Below the pieces are notes generated by a model that saw only the letters and a list, made by a program, of their open reading frames with translations, had not been told where the DNA came from and did no database searches. A DNA stretch of 64,000 nucleotides from Candidatus Microgenomates bacterium (GTDB lineage: Bacteria; Patescibacteriota; JACPGU01): positions 73,045-137,044 of the forward strand of contig JACPGU010000003.1 of NCBI GenBank assembly GCA_016188915.1. The letters are read 5' to 3'. The position numbers and the translations under genes were made by a program. Shown piece by piece: positions 3,553 to 61,759 of this stretch (within the stretch, counting starts at the first letter, position 1; the number at the start of each line of letters is the position of its first letter).

Positions 3553-4383
3553 ATGTTTAGGAAAACGTGGGATTTTTTGAAGAATAATTTTCCAGTTTGG
3601 CTAAAGAACCTCTTGGTTTTTTCCATACTGGCGATTATCATGATTGGAATCTTCAGGTTCGGCAATGCCTTGGCCGTGTTTTTGGTCTTTCGATCAATAG
3701 CCAAAAGCATTGCTTTCAATTCGGGATTACCGGATTGGATCGCCTACTTGATGGCAATTCCTCCAGTAGCGATGCTGGCTTACGGGATGAAGATGTCTTT
3801 TTCTTTTTCGGCAAAAAAACGAAGAATAGGCTACGCCCTCTTGTGTGGTTTTTTCTTTGTCCCCATGATGATAATGGGGTTTATCAGCAAAGACCATGTC
3901 TATTATCCCGATGGCCGACCGGCGAAATGTTACGCCGCTACACTAACGGGATATGAGTATGTCTCTTGCGAATGGAAGGTTCACCCTGTTTTTGGGACGG
4001 CAGTAAAGCCTGTTGTTCCAGATATCATTCATGCTATATGGGCGCAGGAACGCCAAGTGCCGGCGGTGGAGAGAATCGTTCCAACGAAAGACACTCGTTT
4101 TTATACGACTGATGGACAACCCCTCATCTGGTTTTATCAAAGACCGGATGGCAGGATAGAACTTTTCGGTCGACCCGGCTATCATCCGCAATTTGGCAAT
4201 GTTCAATTGCAGCCGGCTACCAGTGAAATTGTTTTGAAAATTTTTGAGCATTTGGAAAAAGAAGAGAGGAATATGGTCATTTTCTCCAATGACTCAAAAA
4301 AGCAAGACGAAATCTCATCTTCCAGCACAAGGGAGCTACAAAAGCTTCGCGATCTTTTCGTCACGATTGGGGGTGATAACTAA
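3553..4383 (+). CDS. Polytopic membrane protein, hypothetical (276 aa)
   Basis: Several hydrophobic segments in the first ~120 aa, soluble C-terminal half. No motif recognised. Confidence 0.5.
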   Translation: MFRKTWDFLKNNFPVWLKNLLVFSILAIIMIGIFRFGNALAVFLVFRSIAKSIAFNSGLPDWIAYLMAIPPVAMLAYGMKMSFSFSAKKRRIGYALLCGFFFVPMMIMGFISKDHVYYPDGRPAKCYAATLTGYEYVSCEWKVHPVFGTAVKPVVPDIIHAIWAQERQVPAVERIVPTKDTRFYTTDGQPLIWFYQRPDGRIELFGRPGYHPQFGNVQLQPATSEIVLKIFEHLEKEERNMVIFSNDSKKQDEISSSSTRELQKLRDLFVTIGGDN

Positions 4384-4884: not shown

Positions 4885-6051
4885 ATGGGGAATAAAACTC
4901 TCAGTATTCTCAAAAGCATTTTTGGCATCATTTTATTTCTTCTCTTAGACGTCGGTTTCGGTCTAATATTAGCTTTTTTGGCAGGGGCATTATTCGCTGG
5001 TCTATTCCTGGGGCTTGATTATTCCTATGATGCTCCCCTCAGTACCATGTTTATAGACGCGTGGCTGTTTTGCACAACACCTTGTAGCATGGTCCTCTTC
5101 CCTATAGTCGGATTGGCCTTCCTTGATTACGCCCAAAATTTTTTGGACAGCAGTAGTAGCAAAAGCGTGCGAAAGCAGTCCATGCGGCTTGCGGGAGTAT
5201 TCGCCATAGCCATGAGCATAATCTCTATCTTGATCTTTATTTTTTCTAGCAATCGCCTTCTTGCTACTGGCTATATAGCTATCGGTTTCTGTGTGGTCTG
5301 GATTATCTGCTCAATTATGGTTTGGCCTTATGACGGAGATTATTTTATGAAAAAAGACCGTTATCAGCAGCCGAATCAGGAAAAAATCACCTTTGACTCT
5401 TATATTAACCTCCCCAAGTGGACATGTTTTGGCATTTGTCTGGCGATGTTGGCGCTCAATATTGCCTATCCCATCAATCTCAGGTTGATACCTGAGCATA
5501 CGACCGCAAGGGTCAAAGAGGATAGGGCAGATGAAAGAGCCGAGCGTCCTCCAACTCCAGGTAGCCTAAGTGGAAAAATCCAGAATCTCGTTTCTGTTCA
5601 GAAGCAATTAGAGGCGCAACAAAAAGAGATCTCTCGCGTTAAGGGAGAATTCTTACAAGAAATCGATTCTCATAAGGCGGATGTTGATGGTAGGTGCAGA
5701 CAGACGCAATGCTCGCTGAAGTCTCCGACCACCATGAACGATCCTGTCATTAATTCTGCCTTACGCCTTATTCAGAAGAAGCGCATCTATGTTTCTGCTC
5801 TGGACAAGATGTGGTATCAAATGGAACAGGCGAGGATGGAGAATAGTTTTCTCACCGAATCGGCAAAGGCCGACTCAAAATGGCTAAAAGTTGCCAAAAG
5901 TAAGGAGTCGGCAGAATTGGTAGAAAAGATTGACAAAATTATCAAAGAAAGCGTTGTCAGCCCTGACCTTTCTACTGAGACTATGGAAAGATTAGGAGGA
6001 AAGGGGCAAAGCCTGGAAAGCATTCTCGGAGAAATACTAGGTGAGCCCTGA
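4885..6051 (+). CDS. Membrane-anchored protein with conserved C-terminal helical domain (paralog of 2515..3531)
   Basis: RBS ggagg then ATG 4885. Multiple TM helices. C-terminus LIQKKRIYVSALDKM...FLTESAKADSKWLKVAKS...ELVEKIDKIIKES matches the 2515 product. Confidence 0.6.
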   Translation: MGNKTLSILKSIFGIILFLLLDVGFGLILAFLAGALFAGLFLGLDYSYDAPLSTMFIDAWLFCTTPCSMVLFPIVGLAFLDYAQNFLDSSSSKSVRKQSMRLAGVFAIAMSIISILIFIFSSNRLLATGYIAIGFCVVWIICSIMVWPYDGDYFMKKDRYQQPNQEKITFDSYINLPKWTCFGICLAMLALNIAYPINLRLIPEHTTARVKEDRADERAERPPTPGSLSGKIQNLVSVQKQLEAQQKEISRVKGEFLQEIDSHKADVDGRCRQTQCSLKSPTTMNDPVINSALRLIQKKRIYVSALDKMWYQMEQARMENSFLTESAKADSKWLKVAKSKESAELVEKIDKIIKESVVSPDLSTETMERLGGKGQSLESILGEILGEP

Positions 6052-6094
6052 GAGTCTTAGCTCGCCTCGTTTTCCACTATTATTGTCTAGCATA

Positions 6095-6123
6095 CGCCAC
6101 TCAAATACGAGTGGTGTTTTTTT
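6095..6123 (+). terminator. Rho-independent terminator (for 4885..6051)
   Basis: ccactc-aaatac-gagtgg followed by tgtttttttt. Confidence 0.7.
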
Positions 6124-6132
6124 TAAAATAAA

Positions 6133-6186
6133 AACCGAAAATATTTTCCAAAAACTAAGAATGTTCTATGGAGAATATTTTCGGTA
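6133..6186 (-). terminator. Hairpin with T-rich tail on minus strand (terminator for 6208..6978)
   Basis: accgaaaatattttcc / ggagaatattttcggt arms (1 mismatch), ~20-nt loop. Minus strand reads into ttttattttaaaaaaaa. Confidence 0.45.
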
Positions 6187-6207
6187 TCCAGGTTTTATGA
6201 CAAGTAG

Positions 6208-6978
6208 CTATCTCCCATGTCGACCCTTCAGATCAGAGTCACTGACCACACAAAAAACTGCGTGTTTGACATCGAAAATATGATAGGCGGGGTCGACCAA
6301 AATAGGAGAAGGAACATCGATCATGGCGCAAGCATGAGTTACTTTTTTGTCATAGCAATCCCTATCGACTGTTACATATTGAGCTTTGACCCCCACCGAT
6401 CTGACAAGAACGATAAAGAGATAGGCCTGTTCTCCGCAAACTCCCTTGCCCTTGCGAAGCACTTCTTCTGCCGTATGATAGCCTTCTTTCCGGTAGGAAT
6501 ATTCGTGGTCGTAGCTAATGTTTTCTTGCATCCAATTGAAGATAAGGCGAGCCTTTTCTCGTGGAGACTTTTCTTTGCCGACTATCTTCTTTGCCAAATC
6601 ACGACCCTTCTTTGAAATGATGAAGGGATGGCTTTTCACATCGGGTATTATTTCCTCGAAAATAATTTTGAAAACTATACCCGACACTATTTGCAATATA
6701 TCGCCTTGTGCCTCAAACGATCTGAGAGAGGCCTGCCTTTTAATTTCATCCAGACTATCCCTTAGAAGCATGCGACTGTTGATATTAAGGGGTATCTCAT
6801 AATCACTGGTTATCCTATCGGCTATTATGGCGCACACGGTATTGGCGATATTGTCCAGAATCTTCACTTTTCTAACTTGTTGGCTTTTCTTTTTTAGCTC
6901 TGACGTAGAAAGAATCGCCTTTATGGTGATGCCTAAGAAGAACAAAAAAATCAGTCCGAGAAAATAAAGATAAGACAT
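6208..6978 (-). CDS. Membrane-anchored transglutaminase-like cysteine protease superfamily protein
   Basis: N-terminal TM. KGKGVCGEQAYLFIVLVRSVGVKAQYVTV...H...D is the Cys-His-Asp transglutaminase-like core. Confidence 0.6.
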   Translation of the reverse strand: MSYLYFLGLIFLFFLGITIKAILSTSELKKKSQQVRKVKILDNIANTVCAIIADRITSDYEIPLNINSRMLLRDSLDEIKRQASLRSFEAQGDILQIVSGIVFKIIFEEIIPDVKSHPFIISKKGRDLAKKIVGKEKSPREKARLIFNWMQENISYDHEYSYRKEGYHTAEEVLRKGKGVCGEQAYLFIVLVRSVGVKAQYVTVDRDCYDKKVTHACAMIDVPSPILVDPAYHIFDVKHAVFCVVSDSDLKGRHGR

Positions 6979-7177
6979 AGCTCATCTGCCTCCCCCCGAT
7001 TGAATTTGTAAAGTGCTCAAGTATATTGTATCTTATCCTAGCTATTTTTACTATAGCAATAGTTGTGGCAACAGGAGCTTCAGTTCCCAAGTGACTTATT
7101 GACGGCGGTTTTTCTGTCTGTTACTATTGAGATACCCCTACCTATGGTGGAGGTATATACAATAATTAGAAAAAACT

Positions 7178-19170: not shown

Positions 19171-20484
19171 ATGGTCACCACGAAATCTTCCAAAAACTTG
19201 TCTATCCCTAATTTGTCTGCTGTCAAAAAACCCACGGTTGCCGTGGCGCTTTCTGGTGGGGTGGATTCTTCCGTGGCCGCTTATTTATTGAAAAAAGAGG
19301 GCTTTGATGTGATTGGAATATTTCTCAAATTTTGGGCTCCCGATCCGGACAAATTTCAGAGCAAAAGAGGCAATATGTGTTGTGACGCCTCCACTGTTTT
19401 GGCGGTGCATAAAATCGCCGCGCAACTGGATATCCCTTTGAAAATAATAGACAGCAGTGAAGTTTTCAAAAATGTAGTAGTAGATTATTACATCGAAGAA
19501 TACGAAAATGCCCGTACCCCCAATCCTTGCGTCAAATGCAATCGCTATATCAAATTTGATTTTTTATGGAAAGAAGCCAAAAAATTAGGATGCCAGTATC
19601 TGGCGACAGGACATTATGCGCGCATGGGACAAAAAATCAAGAAAACAAAAAATCAAGAAAACAAAATTAATAGCCATTCTATTTTTCGCGCGAAAGACGC
19701 AAAAAAAGACCAGACTTATTTTCTTTGGGGGATTAAAAAAGAGATTTTGCCACACCTGATCTTCCCCCTCGGAGATTTGGAAAAGTCCGAAACTAGAAAA
19801 ATCGCTCAAAAAGCAAAACTGATAACGCATAATAAAGCGGATAGCCAGGGAGTCTGTTTCGTGGACGAAGGAGAAAACGCGAAATTTATTTCTATCTTTG
19901 GTAAAAAACTCATCCGCCCAGGCGATGTATATGACCAGGCTGGACACTTTTTGGGCAGACACAGGGGACTAATTCATTATACTATTGGTCAAAAAAAAGG
20001 AGTGGAAAATGAATGGACAGTGAAGTATCTCAAATCTCAAAAAAAAGCCAGAATATCTTTGTCGCAATTATCAAGCTTGCCGCGATTGTATGTTTTGCGA
20101 CTGGACGTGGAAAAAAATAGATTGATTATTGGCCTCGACAATGAAGTTTTTGCCAAATCTTTGATCGCCAAAGATATCAATATCTTAAGTGACAAATTTT
20201 TGAAAATGATGGGTAAAAAAGTTTATGCCCAAATTCGCAGTGGACAAAAGCCACAATTGGCCTTATTGGCAAATCTCAAAACTCAAAACTCAAATCATCC
20301 ACGCTTTCAGCGGGATCCCGCCTACTATCAAACTATATTAAAGCGGCGGGACAAACAGATCTCAAAACTCAAAACTATAAAATTGAAATTTACAAAGCCA
20401 GTGCGAGCAGTGACGCCAGGGCAGAGCGTGGTTTTGTACACTAGAAAAGGAGAAATGCTGGGAGGAGGAGTGATAATAAAATAA
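19171..20484 (+). CDS. mnmA: tRNA-specific 2-thiouridylase MnmA, with internal insertion and C-terminal extension
   Basis: PP-loop VALSGGVDSSVAA. Catalytic region NPCVKCN. ATGHYAR. 437 aa versus ~360 typical. Confidence 0.8.
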   Translation: MVTTKSSKNLSIPNLSAVKKPTVAVALSGGVDSSVAAYLLKKEGFDVIGIFLKFWAPDPDKFQSKRGNMCCDASTVLAVHKIAAQLDIPLKIIDSSEVFKNVVVDYYIEEYENARTPNPCVKCNRYIKFDFLWKEAKKLGCQYLATGHYARMGQKIKKTKNQENKINSHSIFRAKDAKKDQTYFLWGIKKEILPHLIFPLGDLEKSETRKIAQKAKLITHNKADSQGVCFVDEGENAKFISIFGKKLIRPGDVYDQAGHFLGRHRGLIHYTIGQKKGVENEWTVKYLKSQKKARISLSQLSSLPRLYVLRLDVEKNRLIIGLDNEVFAKSLIAKDINILSDKFLKMMGKKVYAQIRSGQKPQLALLANLKTQNSNHPRFQRDPAYYQTILKRRDKQISKLKTIKLKFTKPVRAVTPGQSVVLYTRKGEMLGGGVIIK

Positions 20485-20558
20485 AAAATTAAGAAAGTAA
20501 AAAACTAAGAAATTAATAAATAACAAATTAGGACTTACGCACCTAGCCTTTTTCGCAA

Positions 20559-20597
20559 AGATGTCCGACATCAAAGGATGCTCGATGTCGGACATCT
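20559..20597. other. Perfect 14-bp-stem hairpin downstream of mnmA
   Basis: agatgtccgacatc-aaaggatgctc-gatgtcggacatct. No classical T-tract. Confidence 0.4.
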
Positions 20598-21389
20598 GGC
20601 TAAAAACTATCAAGCTATATTATAAAAACAAACTATATAAAGGGGACGGGACAAATAAGTTCTGTTGAAAAAACTTTTTTTCCGATTTTTCCTCCGCATT
20701 TTTTTTGCAATTTTTATGGCTCTATATGGCTCTATATATGAAGTTGTTTGACAATATTTTTTTGCACGATAGAATAATGAGAGCGATAATGAAAAATGGG
20801 TTTTACCAGGTTTAAAAAGTTTTTTTGACAGCTAGATTTTTCTTGCACAAAACCGTTGACTAGTTGTAGACAAAGTATATAATTGATGTTAAGTACGCGG
20901 TTGCAAAGAGGAAATTTGTTGCTATTTTGTTGCATTAGCTGTCTGGCTATTTATTAATTTTTTTGCTAACAAAGCCACATTAATTCGTGGTAGCACTTTA
21001 AAAAAATGTGTGGATAGATTCTTGATAAATTAGTTTTCAGGTTGTGGAAAACTAGTCAAATTGTTGTTGCATGCGCGACAGCTTTTAGCAGTTAGAAGCA
21101 AAATGAAAAATTAGACAATAAACAAATTGCGAATGCACGCCAAAGAATTTCTTTTTTCGGCAATCCAAAAGGTCGAGCCCTCTTGGAAGTTTTCAAGAGT
21201 AATGAAAAAGAAAATTCGCGGCTCTGATAATCCAATGATGAAAGAAAAATGAAAAATAAAAATATCAATAAGCCCACTTACAGCGCGTGTGAAAATATTC
21301 AAATTATTTTTTCCCGCGTCAATAATAAAAATAATAGTGGGCACTTGTTCCTTTCAAAAACGAGAGGAGCAAAGGAGGTTATAAAAATT

Positions 21390-25777: not shown

Positions 25778-27892
25778 TTATGGCTTAAATACTTGGAGAC
25801 CGATAGAGCTATCCAGGATAAAGAGTCTGGGATTGTCCGAGATTGGCTCAAAATCTACACTCATCGGATTGGTAAGATTGCCATCTGGGACAGAGGCGAT
25901 CTCCCAATCTAGAATTATTGATGCTCCGTCGTCAAAAAGCCCAACTACACGATCTCGTTCGTTGTCAGCGTAGACAACTTGTGTGCCGTTGGATAATTTT
26001 CGGACGGTTATGCTGGTGCAGTCAGCACTAATATTATAGCTTCTTTGCCAATTGCCTGCACGATTGAACTTTTTGATTGCGCGGTTGCCTCGATCTAGAA
26101 CCCAGACACTATCTTCAGTAACGCCTACTCCGATTGGTTCTTTGAGCTGAGCGTCATTGGTGCCAAAGGTGCCGATAATCTCGCCGGTGGTTTTACCGTC
26201 AGATTCGTAGAAAACAATTATGCGACCGTTTTTTGAATCAGCGGCAAAGATTTTGCCGCTTTCTCCAGTGCAATCTATGCCTGCCGGATCGTTTAACCCG
26301 ACTGATATGCCCATCGTCATTTTCCAGGTCATGGTTCTGTAGTCTACCTTGACTTTAATTATTCGATCCTTGTTTTGATCGGTAATATAAAGATGGTTGT
26401 TACAGAAGCCAAGATTATTGGGGTTAGTGATAGTCTCTGGCAAATCGACGATAGCAGAAGAATCCAGACTGACCCAATCATTAAGATTGGAACCGCCGGT
26501 AGTTCGTAAATGCATCCCATTGCCATCTAAAATCGCTAGTTGCTCATCGAACTCATAGACTAGATTAGTGCCGGAGACGGAGACTTTGTTGACGAAGGTC
26601 GGACGAATGTTACTACCGCCCATATTCTCTCCTCCCCCTCCGCTTGTCACCACCGTAATCGTGGTCGTGCAGGTATTGCTTCCGCCGGTGCCGGTGACAG
26701 TGCCGGTCGCCGTGTAGGTGCCGGTCGCCGTGTAGGTCTTACTCGTGCTTCCGCTCGAACTTGAGCTGGAGTACGAATTCGACCCGTCGCCGAAATTGAT
26801 GGAAATCCCCGTGAACCCCGAGCCGCTCACCGACCAGCTGATGCTGGTGGATGAATTGACATTGGGGTTGCTGGGACTGGCGGACAAACTGCAGGTTGGC
26901 GCGGACGGATTGGTGGTCGTTCCATAATAGATGGAGGTGGAGACCTTGGTCTGCGAGTTGTTCGGATCTTCCGAACTCCAGCCCGCGTCATCCACGCACC
27001 AAAGCTTGACAGTGTTATCGCCAGAGGCAAGGGTTATTTCTCGCTCCCAGGGGATCCATGTGTCCTGCCCGATCTTGTCAGGGTCGTCGTAATCCACCAT
27101 TTTCGCCGTATCTGAACCCACCTGCACCCACAGGTTGCAATCAGGGCGTTTGCTCCCCCCAATTATCGGGGTGGAATCGGTGGTTGGCGACTCCACCGTA
27201 TCAATGATAGGCGGAGCCGGCCTGGTGGTGTCCAACATCGTGTCAAAAACCGTCCCACCACTGGGTCTGTTGGACGAATCGCGACAGACAAAAATGTGAT
27301 GGTTCGGTCCTTCCACTAGGGTCAAAGAATAGGTGGACTGGGTGGACCCGTCGCGATTGACGATAATCTCCTGGCCGTCCATCTCCAGCGTCGGGCAATT
27401 GCTCCCCGTTTTGAAGGTGACGGTCATGGGCGAAGTAGTGACTGTGGCCGGAATGGTGCCGACAAATCCAGGCGCCGAAGGACCTCCTTCAGGGCGATCG
27501 TTGACGATGACGGTGGCCGTATAAGGGCCGGCGGCGTTTGTGCCGTCCGTCAAAGTCACCGAGATGCCGAAGGTGCCGGTCTGCGAGTAGAGGTGGTAAT
27601 TGCTGCAAGTCACCCCTTCGTTTTTCGCGCCACCGCCCCAGCTGAAATTGCAGAACAAAGAAGCACCTTGTCTGCCCCCTGACGGTGTGCCGGAGCAACG
27701 GACGGAGTCGTTCTGGTAAATCGTGGTCGGTTCACAGCCCCAATTGAGGAGTTTCAAGGGCTTCTCTTCCGTGGGGGGCGGAGCCGAAGTGCCTCCTCCT
27801 CCGCCACAGCCGGTCAGAAACAGGGAAAAAACAATCGTCAAAATGCCCGCGACCCGGGCAGGGTTCCAACCACAAAGGTTGAATTTTCGCAT
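25778..27892 (-). CDS. Lipoprotein with PKD-like domain(s), Gly/Ser/Thr-rich linker and C-terminal NHL-repeat beta-propeller
   Basis: Lipobox LFLTGC. TYTATGTYTATGTVTGTGG linker encoded by an 18-bp tandem repeat at ~26702-26737. NHL-like repeats (GKIFAADSKNGRIIVF; VWVLDRGNRAIKKF). Confidence 0.6.
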   Translation of the reverse strand: MRKFNLCGWNPARVAGILTIVFSLFLTGCGGGGGTSAPPPTEEKPLKLLNWGCEPTTIYQNDSVRCSGTPSGGRQGASLFCNFSWGGGAKNEGVTCSNYHLYSQTGTFGISVTLTDGTNAAGPYTATVIVNDRPEGGPSAPGFVGTIPATVTTSPMTVTFKTGSNCPTLEMDGQEIIVNRDGSTQSTYSLTLVEGPNHHIFVCRDSSNRPSGGTVFDTMLDTTRPAPPIIDTVESPTTDSTPIIGGSKRPDCNLWVQVGSDTAKMVDYDDPDKIGQDTWIPWEREITLASGDNTVKLWCVDDAGWSSEDPNNSQTKVSTSIYYGTTTNPSAPTCSLSASPSNPNVNSSTSISWSVSGSGFTGISINFGDGSNSYSSSSSSGSTSKTYTATGTYTATGTVTGTGGSNTCTTTITVVTSGGGGENMGGSNIRPTFVNKVSVSGTNLVYEFDEQLAILDGNGMHLRTTGGSNLNDWVSLDSSAIVDLPETITNPNNLGFCNNHLYITDQNKDRIIKVKVDYRTMTWKMTMGISVGLNDPAGIDCTGESGKIFAADSKNGRIIVFYESDGKTTGEIIGTFGTNDAQLKEPIGVGVTEDSVWVLDRGNRAIKKFNRAGNWQRSYNISADCTSITVRKLSNGTQVVYADNERDRVVGLFDDGASIILDWEIASVPDGNLTNPMSVDFEPISDNPRLFILDSSIGLQVFKP

Positions 27893-55499: not shown

Positions 55500-57449
55500 A
55501 TGTTAAAGAATTTTTATCGTAAACTGCCCTTGAAATATCGTCGAGATATAAAATTTTTTTATTACTCTTTTTTTAGGTTTACGGAAAGCTTAAAGAAAAA
55601 ACCAAAATTGCGGGATATACCTGATGGGCCGAAGATTTCTGTGGTGGTGCCGGTTTTTCGGCACGAAAGGTATTTGCGGGAGTGCATAGATTCTATTCTA
55701 AGCCAAAGCTATACGAATTTTGAATTAATTTTAGTGAACGACGATCCTGATAATAAGGAGATAGAGAAAATCTTACGAGAGTACGAGAACAATCTTAGGG
55801 TAAAAATTTTGCACAATGAGAGTAATATCCATGTTTCCGAGAGCTTAAACAGGGGCATCAGAAAATCTACTGGAGAGTACGTCGCTTTTGTGGACTGTGA
55901 TGATGCTTTGTGCCCGTATAGTTTGCAAGAAGTGGTAAAATATATTTTGGAAAACGGCTCTTGGCCAGATTTTATTAGCACGAAATACGTGGTTATCAGC
56001 GAAAAAGGGCGACTGATTTGTTGTTATAATAGACCGAAAAACCCTAATATTTTTCAAAATATGTGGGCGAGTCATTTAAAGGTGATAAGACGAGATGTTT
56101 TTGAAAAGATTGGCTATTTTGACCCAAAATGGAGCGGTATTCAGGACTATGAATTTGCTTTGCGGGCAGAAAAAAATGGTTGCCAGATCCATTATTTACA
56201 AAAATATTTATACAAATACAGGGAGCATGCCGAAACCTATACTACGCAAAAATTGAAATCGCAGTATGAAAGGTCGGATGCCCTGAAAGAACTTTACGCA
56301 CTGGATAAGAAGCTAAAAATCCTCTATCTAATCACGCAATCCGAGTGGGGTGGGGCACAGAGGTATGTCTACGATCTCGCGACAAATATGGTGCGTGATT
56401 TTGAAGTGGTGGTGGCGGGAGGGGGGGAGGGGCATTTGTCGGAGAGACTGGAACAGACGGTAGTGCGGTTTGTGGCCTTGAAGCATTTGATTCGTCCTAT
56501 TAGACCCTTTCGCGATTTGCTGGCGTTTTTTGAAATATTAACGCTTTTACGGCGGGAAAAGCCGGATATTCTGCATCTTAATTCCAGCAAGGCAGTAGTT
56601 TTGGGATCTTTAGCGGGACGTCTTTCTCGCTTCCGGCCAAAGATCATCGCCACTGCGCACGGTTTGGCATATCATGAACCAGGCTCAATATGGAAAAAAC
56701 AATTTTATAAACTTTTTGAAAAAATCGGTTTTGGTTTGGCGGATAGGATAATTTGTGTTTCCCGTTTTGATTATGGCAGTGGAATAAAAAATCATGTTTT
56801 TAAGGCCTCAAAAGCTACCATTATCTATAACGGTCTACTTGCGAAGGTGTCACCTTCGCAAGTAGACGTGAAGGCCAAGTTTTTGCATAAAGATGAAGCA
56901 TGTGTAGTTGGCACTATCGCTAATTTTTATCCCAACAAAGGCCTGGAGTATTTATTGCGAGTAGCCAAACTGATTCAAGACAAGCGTTCTGATATTAGCT
57001 TTGTTGTAGCTGGAGATGGAGTAGGGAGGCGAGACATAGAATCGCAAATCGCAGAATTGGGACTGAAAAATGTGAAGCTTATAGGATTTATCGACGATAC
57101 GGAAAAATTTCTGCAAGAATGCGACATCTTCGTCTTATCATCGCTCAAAGAAGGTTTACCTTATGTTATTTTAGAGGCGATGGCGATGGGCTTGCCTATT
57201 GTAGCAACAAAAGTCGGAGGAGTGCCGGAGATGGTGGACGACAATGTAGCCGGGTTTCTTGTCTCCCCGGCCGATTCAGAAGCACTGGCTGAAAAAATAG
57301 AAATATTAGCTAATGATTCTTCGCTCTGTCTTCGTTTCGGCCAAAGTGGCGCTAGAAAATTGCGGATTCAATTTACCCCAGACAAGATGCTTTGCGACAC
57401 AAAAAGTATCTACATAAAACTACTTGCGAAGGTGACACCTTCGCAATAA
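55500..57449 (+). CDS. Bifunctional GT2 (N-terminal) - GT4 (C-terminal) fused glycosyltransferase; carries two in-frame REP-like palindrome insertions
   Basis: GT2 ISVVVPVFRHERYLRECIDSILSQSYTNFELILVNDD. GT4 EGLPYVILEAMAMGLPIVATKVGGVPEMV. REP copies at 56824-56856 (encoding LLAKVSPSQVD) and 57419-57448 (encoding the C-terminal LLAKVTPSQ). Confidence 0.7.
   Translation: MLKNFYRKLPLKYRRDIKFFYYSFFRFTESLKKKPKLRDIPDGPKISVVVPVFRHERYLRECIDSILSQSYTNFELILVNDDPDNKEIEKILREYENNLRVKILHNESNIHVSESLNRGIRKSTGEYVAFVDCDDALCPYSLQEVVKYILENGSWPDFISTKYVVISEKGRLICCYNRPKNPNIFQNMWASHLKVIRRDVFEKIGYFDPKWSGIQDYEFALRAEKNGCQIHYLQKYLYKYREHAETYTTQKLKSQYERSDALKELYALDKKLKILYLITQSEWGGAQRYVYDLATNMVRDFEVVVAGGGEGHLSERLEQTVVRFVALKHLIRPIRPFRDLLAFFEILTLLRREKPDILHLNSSKAVVLGSLAGRLSRFRPKIIATAHGLAYHEPGSIWKKQFYKLFEKIGFGLADRIICVSRFDYGSGIKNHVFKASKATIIYNGLLAKVSPSQVDVKAKFLHKDEACVVGTIANFYPNKGLEYLLRVAKLIQDKRSDISFVVAGDGVGRRDIESQIAELGLKNVKLIGFIDDTEKFLQECDIFVLSSLKEGLPYVILEAMAMGLPIVATKVGGVPEMVDDNVAGFLVSPADSEALAEKIEILANDSSLCLRFGQSGARKLRIQFTPDKMLCDTKSIYIKLLAKVTPSQ
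56824..56856. repeat. REP-like palindrome copy 1 (perfect 16-bp arms, 1-nt spacer), inside the GT2-GT4 gene
   Basis: tctacttgcgaaggtg-t-caccttcgcaagtaga. Confidence 0.8.
57419..57448. repeat. REP-like palindrome copy 2, at the 3' end of the GT2-GT4 gene and 11 bp upstream of the RAYT start
   Basis: ctacttgcgaaggtg-a-caccttcgcaataag. Confidence 0.8.
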
Positions 57450-57458
57450 GATAAAATC

Positions 57459-58157
57459 ATGCAACGGCAAATAGAACAAAAACAAAAAAATGCCGATTAT
57501 GGCATATTTCATATCTATAATCGTGGGACAGAAAAAAGAGATATTTTTTTAGATATGTACGATTTTAAAAGATTCTATGATGGTATACGGGAATTTAATA
57601 CTACTATACCGGTTGATCTACGTGAAAGAATACGGGAAAAAAAGAAACGCGAAGGTGACACCTTCGCAAATAGTGGGCTAGCAAGAGGAGAAAGGCTGGT
57701 AGATGTGTTGTGTTTTTGTTTAATGCCCAATCATTATCATCTTATTTTAAAGCCCCTCATAAAGAATGGTGTGACTGTATTTATGCGTAAATTAGCCACT
57801 GGCTATTCATCTTATTTCAATCGTAGATATGAAAGAAGTGGTAGACTATTCCAAAATGTTTTTAAAAATAAGGAGATAGATTCTGACGAATCATTTTTGT
57901 ATGTCTCTGCCTATCAACACATCAATCCTATAGCTGCTAAGTTGGCGAAAAAACCATCAGATTGGCTATGGTCTAGCTATAAACACTTTATCGGGGTAAG
58001 GAATGATGATATACTGCTAGGGGTAGAAAAAATATTGAGCGTTACATCACTTGAGTATAAAAAATATGTTGAGGGATTAATAGATGAAAATTGGTTTAGC
58101 AACCATAAAAAAAATTTACTTTTAGAGACAGACGATGATTACTACTTGCGAAGGTGA
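57459..58157 (+). CDS. IS200/IS605-family Y1 (HuH) transposase, REP-associated type (RAYT)
   Basis: YGIFHIYNRGTEKRDIF N-terminal strand. HuH motif LMPNHYHLIL. C-terminal Tyr-containing helix SAYQHINP. An internal REP copy encodes an inserted loop KKREGDTFANSG. Confidence 0.65.
   Translation: MQRQIEQKQKNADYGIFHIYNRGTEKRDIFLDMYDFKRFYDGIREFNTTIPVDLRERIREKKKREGDTFANSGLARGERLVDVLCFCLMPNHYHLILKPLIKNGVTVFMRKLATGYSSYFNRRYERSGRLFQNVFKNKEIDSDESFLYVSAYQHINPIAAKLAKKPSDWLWSSYKHFIGVRNDDILLGVEKILSVTSLEYKKYVEGLIDENWFSNHKKNLLLETDDDYYLRR
57646..57670. repeat. REP-like palindrome copy 3 (shorter arms gcgaaggtg/caccttcgc) inside the RAYT ORF
   Basis: aacgcgaaggtg-a-caccttcgcaaatag. Confidence 0.7.
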
Positions 58158-58175
58158 CACCTTCGCAAGTAATAA
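58139..58175. repeat. REP-like palindrome copy 4, overlapping the RAYT stop codon and lying just upstream of alaS
   Basis: ttactacttgcgaaggtg-a-caccttcgcaagtaataa. Confidence 0.8.
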
Positions 58176-60301: not shown

Positions 60302-61552
60302 TCAGGTAATGGGTATCATGCCGATTCCGAGGAAGCGAATCCTGGGGATATTGTTTTCGGTACCCGATCCGTGGACTGAGTAGTTCGGATCGTCGCACCC
60401 ACCCCTGGTGGCCATGATTTCTTCGAGCAACCCTTTTGTTGCAAGACCCAGCTCACTGCTGTGTCCTTCCGGTGACGCTTGGTTGGCATTCACGATCGCG
60501 GTTACATCGAGGTCTTGAACATTACCTGCTTTCGCGGCATCGACGATGGCAATCTTCGTCTCGCCGGAGAGAGCGCCTTCGTATTCTTTCACGCATGACG
60601 CCAGTTTCACGGCATCTTCCTGGCTCTGAATGCCCCATCTTCCGACGAACGCTCGCAGAAAAGCATTTCGGGACCTGCCCGTCCGAAACTTTTTGACGAA
60701 TTTCACCGCAGGATCGATAAGACCGATTCTCTCGAGGACAAGGGTATTGAGATAATCCTCGGCAGCCGCCACGCGCCCGACTTCTGCTTCTTCGGCGGCC
60801 AAAAGATATGCAATGTTTTCCAGCTCCTCGACTGGCGTATCCGTATTGCAGCGCACGATGCGCGCCTCCGCCGCACCGAAGATGGCGGTCAGTGCCTCGA
60901 TGCCGCCAAATTCCGTTGTTTGCACGAGCTTGGCGAGTTTGACCAGTTCTTCCGTCAGAAGTTCTTCATTCCATTTATGGGCTTGTAGGAAAATTCTGAT
61001 GGTGCGATGAATCCCCGTTCTGGTCAGGAAAGCGTTCGCCAGCATTATCGCGTCTTCAGTGGTGGTCAGGAGACCACTCGCTCGTGCGAGTATTGCCTCC
61101 TCGAGGATGTCGGACCCACGCCCATCACAGAAAGGATCGCGCACTTGTTCCGCCAGTTCGCAGAGATCGGCGAGCGTCAAGCCGGGTGGCAGATCGAGAT
61201 TGTTCTTGAATGCTTCTTTGATAACCGCAATCGTTTCGTTGACCCTATCTTTGCTGTCCTCTTCGTCCACCATTCCGATCAGATCGCAGTAGTTCTCGAG
61301 ATCCAATGCTACATTCGAGTTCCTGGTCACTCTTCGGAGCCATTCGTTTCTTACTGCCGGCGACCGGAGGGCTTGAACAAGTTGCTTTGTATCGTTCTTT
61401 CTGTGCCAGACAGCAAACGCCCTCTCGATGATGGCACTTTCGTGTGCCGCCCGATGCTCGTCGTCCTTGAGCTGGTTCGCCAATTCGCACAACTCATGAA
61501 TCGTTGACGATCCCCGAATCTTCTCCCCAAACGTTTTCGGCCAAAAGCTCAT
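60302..61552 (-). CDS. Hypothetical alpha-helical protein (416 aa) encoded by a GC-rich (~55%) compositionally foreign gene
   Basis: Long ORF, ATG at 61552 (MSFWPKTFGEK...). Base composition clearly differs from the ~38% GC of surrounding genes. No recognised motif. Confidence 0.5.
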   Translation of the reverse strand: MSFWPKTFGEKIRGSSTIHELCELANQLKDDEHRAAHESAIIERAFAVWHRKNDTKQLVQALRSPAVRNEWLRRVTRNSNVALDLENYCDLIGMVDEEDSKDRVNETIAVIKEAFKNNLDLPPGLTLADLCELAEQVRDPFCDGRGSDILEEAILARASGLLTTTEDAIMLANAFLTRTGIHRTIRIFLQAHKWNEELLTEELVKLAKLVQTTEFGGIEALTAIFGAAEARIVRCNTDTPVEELENIAYLLAAEEAEVGRVAAAEDYLNTLVLERIGLIDPAVKFVKKFRTGRSRNAFLRAFVGRWGIQSQEDAVKLASCVKEYEGALSGETKIAIVDAAKAGNVQDLDVTAIVNANQASPEGHSSELGLATKGLLEEIMATRGGCDDPNYSVHGSGTENNIPRIRFLGIGMIPIT

Positions 61553-61759
61553 TTCTTTCGTACTCCTCGGTAGATATTTTGTCGCAACGCGACGGACTCG
61601 CAAGAGCGAGTATTCGACCTGGCATTTTGTTAAACGACAATCTGTCGCCTATCTTACTGCTTTTTTGTACTAATGTCAATATATCGCTCAAATAAGCTGT
61701 TTCAAGGTAGCGCTGGGTTTGTTCTTCCGTTCTCTCGCTGTTGCGGATATAATATATCC

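Follow-up and report, generated by a model that had tools for sequence, protein, structure and literature searches.

A Y1 HUH gene with copies of one hairpin at its borders and within it

The window, by which we mean the whole stretch of 64,000 nts analysed here (contig JACPGU010000003.1 of a Candidatus Microgenomates bacterium), carries the gene of a Y1 HUH endonuclease between a glycosyltransferase gene and alaS, and four copies of one palindrome lie around and within this Y1 gene (Table 1). The evidence presented below indicates that the gene and its hairpins probably form a module of the REPtron or TIRtron kind. A first-pass annotation had read the open reading frame (ORF) as a REP-associated tyrosine transposase (RAYT; REP, repetitive extragenic palindrome) placed between copies of its own REP, and had proposed searching the protein with the Y1_Tnp model and curated RAYT profiles and folding the repeat. 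The ORF and the four copies, including the third one inside the ORF, were found where it had placed them.

The assignment to the Y1 HUH enzymes held. The Pfam model Y1_Tnp (PF01797) matched residues 81-152 with a score of 26.7 bits, above the gathering score of 23 (E 6.4e-6). The HUH motif is formed by H92-Y93-H94 (NHYH) and the predicted catalytic tyrosine is Y152 in the sequence YQHINP (Y152-Q-H-I-N156-P157), a Y...NP motif; H92, H94, Y152 and N156 were invariant in an alignment of 78 homologues. In an AlphaFold2 model (predicted local distance difference test score, pLDDT, 84.5), Y152 is located on helix 143-159. When this model was compared with the PDB using Foldseek, the top match was 4er8, the E. 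coli RAYT with a REP hairpin (E 2.8e-7), and the next were 2xo6 and 2vjv (ISDra2 and IS608 TnpA), with a probability of 1.00 for all three. A sequence-profile search of the PDB with the Y1 protein gave no match. In the C-terminal region, no Pfam match besides Y1_Tnp was obtained at E <=1, and the model has short helices at 189-220, where its confidence declines.

The RAYT label was upheld in part. A curated profile, the NCBIfam RayT equivalog NF047646, gave 52.2 bits, under its cut-off of 80. The window protein also has LFQ and WSSY motifs, and the consensus of its family reads YHIYNRG..KRDIF, LMPNHYH, G.LFQG.FK, YIHLNP and WSSY. For subclass 2.1 of the RAYT-like class 2, the second motif set listed by Quentin et al. 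2018 (PMC6006769, Table 1) consists of NH[YF]H, FQ, Y[IV]HLNP and, close by, SS, and the median protein measures 238 aa. The family motifs NHYH / FQ / YIHLNP / WSSY match this set, the window protein fits it, and the motifs are TIRYT-like rather than those of a canonical RayT. As judged from these motifs, the Y1 gene appears to be a member of the RAYT-like class 2 that is closest to subclass 2.1 (TIRYT). Subclass 2.1 corresponds to RAYT Group 1 (Bertels et al. 2017, PMC5581495) and holds most of the TIRYTs of Di Nocera et al. 2013 (PMC3733652).

A search of 5.8 billion proteins returned a closest relative with 46% identity, and the close relatives that bear a name all belong to the Patescibacteria. 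The family is large, with 20,363 representatives (50% clustering) at E <=1e-3 and 7,108 at E <=1e-10. Viral contigs contributed one distant relative only, so the family is not phage-borne.

With up to two mismatches allowed, the core CGAAGGTGNCACCTTCG matched four times in 64 kb, at 56842, 57427, 57650 and 58149, and these copies together span 56833-58171, a single cluster of ~1.3 kb. None would be expected by chance, since no match was present in any of 100 dinucleotide-preserving shuffles. Half-site searches with mismatches revealed no convincing further copy in the rest of the window. No copy lies outside the cluster in 64 kb, so that the window does not demonstrate the dispersed extragenic family that the term REP would imply. 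Two collections that do not include the source genome were also scanned for the palindrome: 185,579 species-representative genomes gave 24 single unrelated matches, approximately the number expected by chance (the one inspected lies inside a Paceibacteria coding region), and JGI metagenome contigs gave one chance-level match in the coding region of an unrelated gene.

The four copies differ in length and position. Copy 1 is inverted with respect to copies 2-4; copy 2 ends 12 nts before the ATG of the Y1 gene (57459); the apex of copy 4 is the Y1 stop codon TGA (58155-58157), and this copy finishes just 5' of alaS. The palindromes flanking the gene are inverted and direct repeats of each other. 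All four copies fold as single-stranded DNA, with energies of -18.9, -10.6, -8.6 and -14.2 kcal/mol for copies 1-4 and z-scores from -8.2 (copy 1) to -4.3. Copy 3 is translated as part of a loop that precedes the HUH motif, connects helix 54-64 to strand 81-89 and is modelled with low confidence; mean pLDDT values in residues 61-80 are 61 and 69, and residues 68-73 fall below 50. In the alignment, this site corresponds to a hypervariable stretch that runs from the 'EFN' helix to the 'LVD..LMPNHYH' strand.

Several sequence signals were looked for at the hairpins. The window hairpin reads 5'-CTAC...GTAG-3', with GTAG on the 3' side and inside the stem, and the 5' GT[AG]G foot was not found in the window hairpins. 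The GGGGWSAS motif was absent from these hairpins and from their flanks. A terminator scan of the coding strand at the hairpins gave no match and no T-run, terminator-like matches being restricted to the antisense strand; a promoter scan of the locus gave a weak promoter-like match only, and Rfam had no match at the locus.

The exact Y1 protein retrieved a single public contig, a Logan unitig of 1,335 nts covering window positions 56836-58170, both ends of which lie inside hairpins (copies 1 and 4). These two inverted copies share a 30-mer, which is enough to break an assembly graph at k=31.

Homologous loci share the architecture and carry different hairpins

The window was compared with the ten loci of homologues that are 34-46% identical to its Y1 protein (Table 1). 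One of them, L054, is the syntenic orthologue of another, L052, and the 11 loci thus represent ten independent lineages, which is few for a family that numbers thousands. Each homologous locus has its own palindrome, mostly unrelated in sequence to that of the window, and its positions relative to the gene are shared. The proposal that the palindrome is the cognate partner of the gene is therefore borne out in all 11 loci.

A locus-specific hairpin is present at both gene borders in every locus. Nine loci have a perfect-arm copy upstream, which ends 7-32 nts 5' of the ATG, and L047 and L050 have only half-arm matches there; the downstream hairpin overlaps or abuts the stop codon. Eight of the 11 loci (seven of the ten lineages) have an intragenic copy at +140 to +193 nts, within the variable loop that precedes the HUH motif; three loci have a further intragenic copy at +433 to +481 nts, just past the YIHLNP helix. 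Across loci the stems are perfect and measure 9-22 bp, the loops measure 1-5 nts, and orientation flips freely among copies. None of the hairpins of the other loci contains any GTAG. The genomic neighbours of the Y1 gene differ in every independent lineage examined.

The number of extra copies ranged from zero to at least five per homologous locus within 3-10 kb. L046 has at least five within 6 kb, including pairs ~90 nts apart, and additional copies are also present near the genes of L048 (+692) and L047, whereas the flanks of L027, L029, L044 and L050 showed no extra copy. Inverted doublets resembling REPINs were found in L027 (3141-3183) and L047 (4243-4289).

Table 1. Coordinates of genes and hairpins in the window, and palindromes of the homologous loci.
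Locus	Feature	Coordinates	Strand	Palindrome	Details
Window	GT2-GT4 fusion glycosyltransferase gene, intact	55500..57449	+		649 aa; hairpin copies 1 and 2 in frame
Window	Hairpin copy 1	56833..56867		GTCTACTTGCGAAGGTG-T-CACCTTCGCAAGTAGAC	17-bp perfect arms, loop T; best copy
Window	Hairpin copy 2	57421..57449			perfect 11-bp arms 57424-57446, loop A; outer right arm degenerate
Window	Y1 HUH endonuclease gene, RAYT/TIRYT-like	57459..58157	+		232 aa
Window	Hairpin copy 3, intragenic	57649..57667		GCGAAGGTG-A-CACCTTCGC	9-bp arms; Y1 codons 64-70 (REGDTFA), in frame
Window	Hairpin copy 4	58143..58171		TACTTGCGAAGGTG-A-CACCTTCGCAAGTA	14-bp arms; 58139-58175 with one mismatch allowed
Window	alaS (alanyl-tRNA synthetase)	start 58189, possibly 58177; to 60228	+		
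L027 (P0002)	Palindrome			TTCTTGATGTC-C-GACATCAAGAA	
L029 (P0074)	Palindrome			TGATGGAAGT-GAG-ACTTCCATCA	
L039 (P0040)	Palindrome			AAGTTGAAGACT-A-AGTCTTCAACTT	
L044 (P0111)	Palindrome			TATTGAAGT-CTC-ACTTCAATA	
L046 (P0109)	Palindrome			CCTGTGGATAAACGACTT-GCG-AAGTCGTTTATCCACAGG	
L047 (P0005)	Palindrome			GAGGGAAGTC-C-GACTTCCCTC	
L048 (P0036)	Palindrome			TTATTAAAAGCT-N-AGCTTTTAATAA	
L050 (P0072)	Palindrome			TACCGAAGGGT-T-ACCCTTCGGTA	
L052 / L054 (P0014 / P0108)	Palindrome			AAATGAAGGAGG-5 nt-CCTCCTTCATTT	

Hairpin stems are conserved while loops change in concert

L052 and L054 come from two related organisms and are syntenic (ribosomal L10-L7/L12, Y1, GT2), with 80% amino-acid identity between their Y1 proteins. 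The ratio of nonsynonymous to synonymous substitution rates (dN/dS) of the Y1 gene is 0.09, with a synonymous divergence (dS) of ~1.2, and that of the neighbouring genes is 0.016-0.022. By this measure, the Y1 gene is under purifying selection.

Despite this divergence, the stems of all four hairpins are kept. The 5-nt loops differ between the two loci and agree within each species: they read TTCGG, CCGAA, CCGAA and CCGAA in L052, and CTAAG, CTAAG, CTTAG and CTAAG in L054. The copies in reverse orientation occupy different stations in L052 and in L054, and one stem mismatch is common to two copies of L054. Combined, these patterns indicate that the hairpin copies of a locus evolve in concert. 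Units can also be present or absent: 2.1 kb downstream, L052 has a fifth copy of 37 nts that separates a stop codon from an intrinsic terminator, and the orthologous site of L054 is empty.

Within populations the loci were uniform. For the homologue P0074, 24 contigs were read and the ten listed (L029-L038) are identical in gene, hairpin flanks and gene context. P0040 (five contigs, identical in the flanks compared), P0036 and P0014 each occur in one gene context. No population polymorphism of the hairpins was detected among the P0074 and P0040 contigs that were compared.

Recurrent hairpin elements, half-site arrays and a doublet

Additional features were observed in the hairpins and in their surroundings. 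A GAAG...CTTC element, 1-4 bp below the loop, is common to the otherwise unrelated hairpins of the window, L029, L039, L044, L047, L050 and L052/L054, and may be the part that is recognised in common by the protein family. Two apex types recur, GAAGT-GAG-ACTTC and GTC-C/G-GAC. In L039, where two hairpins lie upstream of the P0040 gene, five tandem half-sites (AAGTTGAAGA) are found ahead of them at 7051-7109; this array is identical in the four sample contigs that reach it, and a further contig, L043, starts downstream of it. L047 has a second, longer Y1_Tnp gene (5402-6397, minus strand, 331 aa) at a distance of 1.1 kb from that of P0005, and some genomes of the Candidate Phyla Radiation (CPR) thus have more than one Y1 gene close together.

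The window itself contains a REPIN-like doublet at 20559-20597, composed of two inverted 13-nt palindromes (AGATGTCCGACATC-11 nt-GATGTCGGACATCT). It is located 75 nts past the ORF 19171-20484, at the start of a gene-free stretch of 760 nts (20485-21248), and no Y1 gene adjoins it. Its core, GATGTCCGACATC, is the core of the cognate hairpin at L027, the locus of the closest homologue. One possibility is that the doublet is the orphan hairpin of a second Y1 system whose gene lies in another part of the genome.

Hairpins within and beside the neighbouring genes

The two copies upstream of the Y1 gene are also part of the glycosyltransferase gene. Copy 1, which the first-pass annotation had noticed 600 bp upstream, is present and is not intergenic: it is translated in frame as residues 445-456 (LLAKVSPSQV) of the glycosyltransferase, between its two GT4 Rossmann domains (Pfam limits 283-445 and 458-618). 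Among 13 homologues this linker is hypervariable, in its length as well as in its sequence; the closest homologues are 44-50% identical, and the exact boundaries of an insertion are unreadable. Copy 2, which had been described simply as lying ahead of the Y1 start, also supplies the final nine glycosyltransferase codons (LLAKVTPSQ) and the TAA stop. Homologues end at ...VYIK or ...VYQD (...SIYIK being the equivalent in the window), that is, before LLAKVTPSQ, and the segment encoded by copy 2 is thus a tail extension of the glycosyltransferase. On the other side of the Y1 gene, the start of alaS had been placed at 58135 and was corrected to one of the two positions given in Table 1.

A GT4 glycosyltransferase gene was also found in L029 (919-2079), ~0.9 kb upstream of Y1, its product being 36% identical to the GT4 domain of the window. 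The vicinity of Y1 and GT4 in these two loci may be a coincidence or a loose preference for glycan loci. Further away in the window, an ORF of 433 aa without Pfam match (60302-61603, minus strand) lies in a patch with a guanine-plus-cytosine (GC) content of 0.51, compared to 0.41 for the window, and a second GC-rich patch (0.53) at 26-28 kb covers the ORF 25778-27892. Both patches may be foreign genes.

Discussion

We consider that the locus is probably a CPR module akin to REPtrons and TIRtrons, in which a single-copy, vertically inherited gene for a Y1 HUH endonuclease acting on single-stranded DNA is associated with a tiny family of cognate hairpins. In the mechanism that we infer, the enzyme would bind its hairpin in single-stranded DNA, such as that exposed at a replication fork. 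As suggested by its homology to E. coli TnpA_REP and IS608 TnpA, it would then cut beside the hairpin through Y152, with a metal held on H92 and H94, and rejoin the strands, and hairpin units would be copied, replaced or flipped as a result. Should the enzyme act mainly near its site of synthesis, copies would build up at both borders of its gene and would survive elsewhere only where an in-frame insert of ~30 nts is tolerated. Such sites would be two surface loops of its own ORF and, in the window, the inter-domain linker and the C-terminal tail of the glycosyltransferase. Constant turnover would keep the copies of one locus identical, and the hairpin would drift with the protein between lineages. 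Such a module would explain why positions are conserved and why the copies of one locus are identical, as well as the co-variation of hairpin and protein, the flips of orientation and the gain and loss of units.

A number of points weigh against this module. The protein scores under the RayT equivalog cut-off, and the GT[AG]G guide motif that enzymes of the E. coli type need (PMC6006769) is missing from the hairpins. Within the window no copy lies more than 626 nts from the Y1 gene, and the enzyme of the source genome may be nearly inactive; more generally, enzyme activity in this clade is a prediction from fold and residues. Gene conversion between short repeats could in principle be the source of the concerted evolution, and the fixed positions of hairpins at start and stop codons could reflect a regulatory role.

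A function of its own for the intragenic copy is a hypothetical possibility. It belongs to a reading that we hold only tentatively, according to which the hairpins, instead of being remnants of a half-dead transposase, are obligatory working parts of a conserved cassette retained by the host in many streamlined CPR genomes. An enzyme of the subclass 2.1 type would keep its hairpin at three set places, namely at the 5' border, in a disordered loop of the ORF and at the stop codon, and the intragenic one would itself be selected, for instance as a site of self-cleavage or self-regulation or as a donor copy for homogenisation.

It is unlikely that the hairpin-ORF-hairpin unit (~57421-58175, 755 bp) is an autonomous insertion sequence of the IS200 type with the hairpins as its left and right ends. 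The compactness of this hairpin-bounded unit, the change of neighbours from one independent lineage to the next and the GC content of the Y1 gene (0.34, compared to 0.41-0.46 for its neighbours) would agree with such an element. So would L029, where a direct repeat of 55 nts (2885-2939 and 3692-3746, 91% identical) brackets the whole module; of its two copies, the right one coincides with the 3' end of ftsW and the left one is a stranded duplicate, and it looks like the insertion footprint of the whole module. However, L029 is the only one of ten loci checked that has flanking direct repeats, which are therefore no feature of the family. The Y1 gene is present once in the 64 kb, without near-identical copies even among 5.8 billion proteins, and the locus is fixed in all contigs returned for four homologues and syntenic in L052 and L054 at 80% identity, with the low dN/dS reported above. 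The protein has the Y...NP of class 2 and not Y...Q, and 232 aa instead of ~150 (PMC6006769). Furthermore, the same perfect palindrome is found at both ends instead of distinct imperfect left and right hairpins, hairpin units are gained and lost independently, no tnpB is adjacent, and the family is virtually absent from viral contigs.

Quite improbable, in our view, is that the palindromes are expression signals, either an autoregulatory operator for the C-terminal helical domain or RNA hairpins that end or stabilise transcripts or throttle translation of Y1. All 11 loci have hairpins in stereotyped positions, one just 5' of the ATG and one on the stop codon, which would suit such signals; subclass 2.1 proteins are reported to have a C-terminal helix-turn-helix (HTH)-like domain (PMC6006769), and REPs are generally known to stabilise mRNA 3' ends (also PMC3733652). 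However, the hairpins are not followed by a T-run on the coding strand and their orientation flips freely. Copies also lie within ORFs, in the linker of a neighbour and kilobases away behind unrelated genes. The long perfect stems with short loops suit HUH substrates better than operators, and regulation alone leaves the concerted change of all copies unexplained.

Finally, a local oddity, that is, a palindrome due to chance or replication slippage and unrelated to the ORF, has a negligible probability and is effectively refuted by the comparative data: there are only four copies, all within 1.3 kb, without above-chance matches in the genome and metagenome collections, but zero copies are expected by chance and the same arrangement, with unrelated palindromes, recurs at ten other loci of the family.

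To our knowledge, nearly all work on RAYT/REP systems has been done in Proteobacteria. Subclass 2.1 (Group 1), the largest RAYT-like group, has been reported without REP-like partners; here, a CPR clade with the signature of this subclass has clear co-evolving hairpin partners, which are candidate substrates for biochemistry on an orphan group. With four to five hairpins instead of hundreds, these loci offer a tiny tractable system for asking how enzymes copy and homogenise hairpins. CPR genomes measure ~1 Mb and have little room for selfish DNA, and the module gives a way to ask why reduced genomes keep Y1 genes. On the practical side, the palindromes break short-read assemblies and add hairpin-coded peptides to annotated proteins. 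If the hairpins were obligatory parts of a host-retained cassette, they would belong to a distinct and previously undescribed system for processing single-stranded DNA, and REPtron biology would be extended to subclass 2.1 and to Patescibacteria.

Comparison with known systems

Elements of the IS200/IS605 family (IS608, ISDra2) resemble the locus in their Y1 HUH fold, in the recognition of hairpins in single-stranded DNA and in the location of hairpins near the ends of a unit of ~0.7 kb. Their own features are not seen here: Y...Q, a TnpA of ~150 aa, multicopy identical elements, distinct hairpins at the left and right ends, a tetranucleotide target and, often, tnpB. Rickettsia palindromic elements and intragenic REPs (PMC3733652) show likewise that in-frame palindromes can be tolerated in functional genes; the Rickettsia elements differ in being 100-150 bp long, CGTC-tagged and without an associated transposase, whereas the hairpins described here measure ~30-37 nts and lie beside the gene of an enzyme.

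RAYTs of subclass 2.4, from Cyanobacteria and Bacteroidetes, have a cognate REP translated in frame within their own gene, in a peripheral variable region, as in the loci studied here; in-frame REPs inside the transposase gene have been called unique to that subclass (PMC6006769). Subclass 2.4 differs by its motifs (NH[IFV]H / WQ / YIxNNP) and by GTAG REPs of the 'double-foot' type. Its REP lies between HuH and Y, whereas the CPR loci have their main site before HuH and the second one after the Y helix.

The E. coli TnpA_REP/RAYT REPtron (subclass 2.2; 4ER8; PMC3479197, PMC8266576) provides the closest solved fold and shares with the window the Y...NP motif, a gene bracketed by cognate hairpins, the co-evolution of hairpin and protein, and a single-copy, vertically inherited gene. 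It differs in its REPs: E. coli has hundreds of extragenic copies of an imperfect palindrome that contains a bulge and carries GTAG on its 5' side, whereas the window has four palindromes in 64 kb, all perfect and without a GTAG foot. The window protein, for its part, is under the NCBIfam RayT cut-off and without a PDB match by sequence. The locus would thus work like a REPtron, but it lacks two canonical features of RAYT/REP systems, the equivalog score and the 5' GT[AG]G foot.

TIRtrons and subclass 2.1 are closest in protein signature. Genes of subclass 2.1 are reported without REP-like structures, and their proteins with a C-terminal HTH-like domain resembling DnaA_C, HTH_23 or HTH_28 (PMC6006769). 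The text of that study (Quentin et al.) does not contain the terms Parcubacteria, Microgenomates, CPR or Candidatus, and a full-text literature search retrieved no paper linking RAYTs or IS200-type palindromes with CPR or Patescibacteria. A layout with private hairpins around and inside the gene is not described for subclass 2.1 in the literature examined. Some TIRtrons have self-complementary flanking repeats and some are without a dispersed repeat family, and a GGGGWSAS motif is found in the terminal inverted repeats of most, not all, of those described (PMC3733652). The CPR loci differ from subclass 2.1 as reported by the short perfect hairpins at both gene borders, and from TIRtrons by the absence of GGGGWSAS (in the window), by copies inside the ORF and by their host, the Patescibacteria. 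They are like TIRtrons in their protein signature, in a low or single copy number and in flanking repeats that are unrelated to GTAG REPs.

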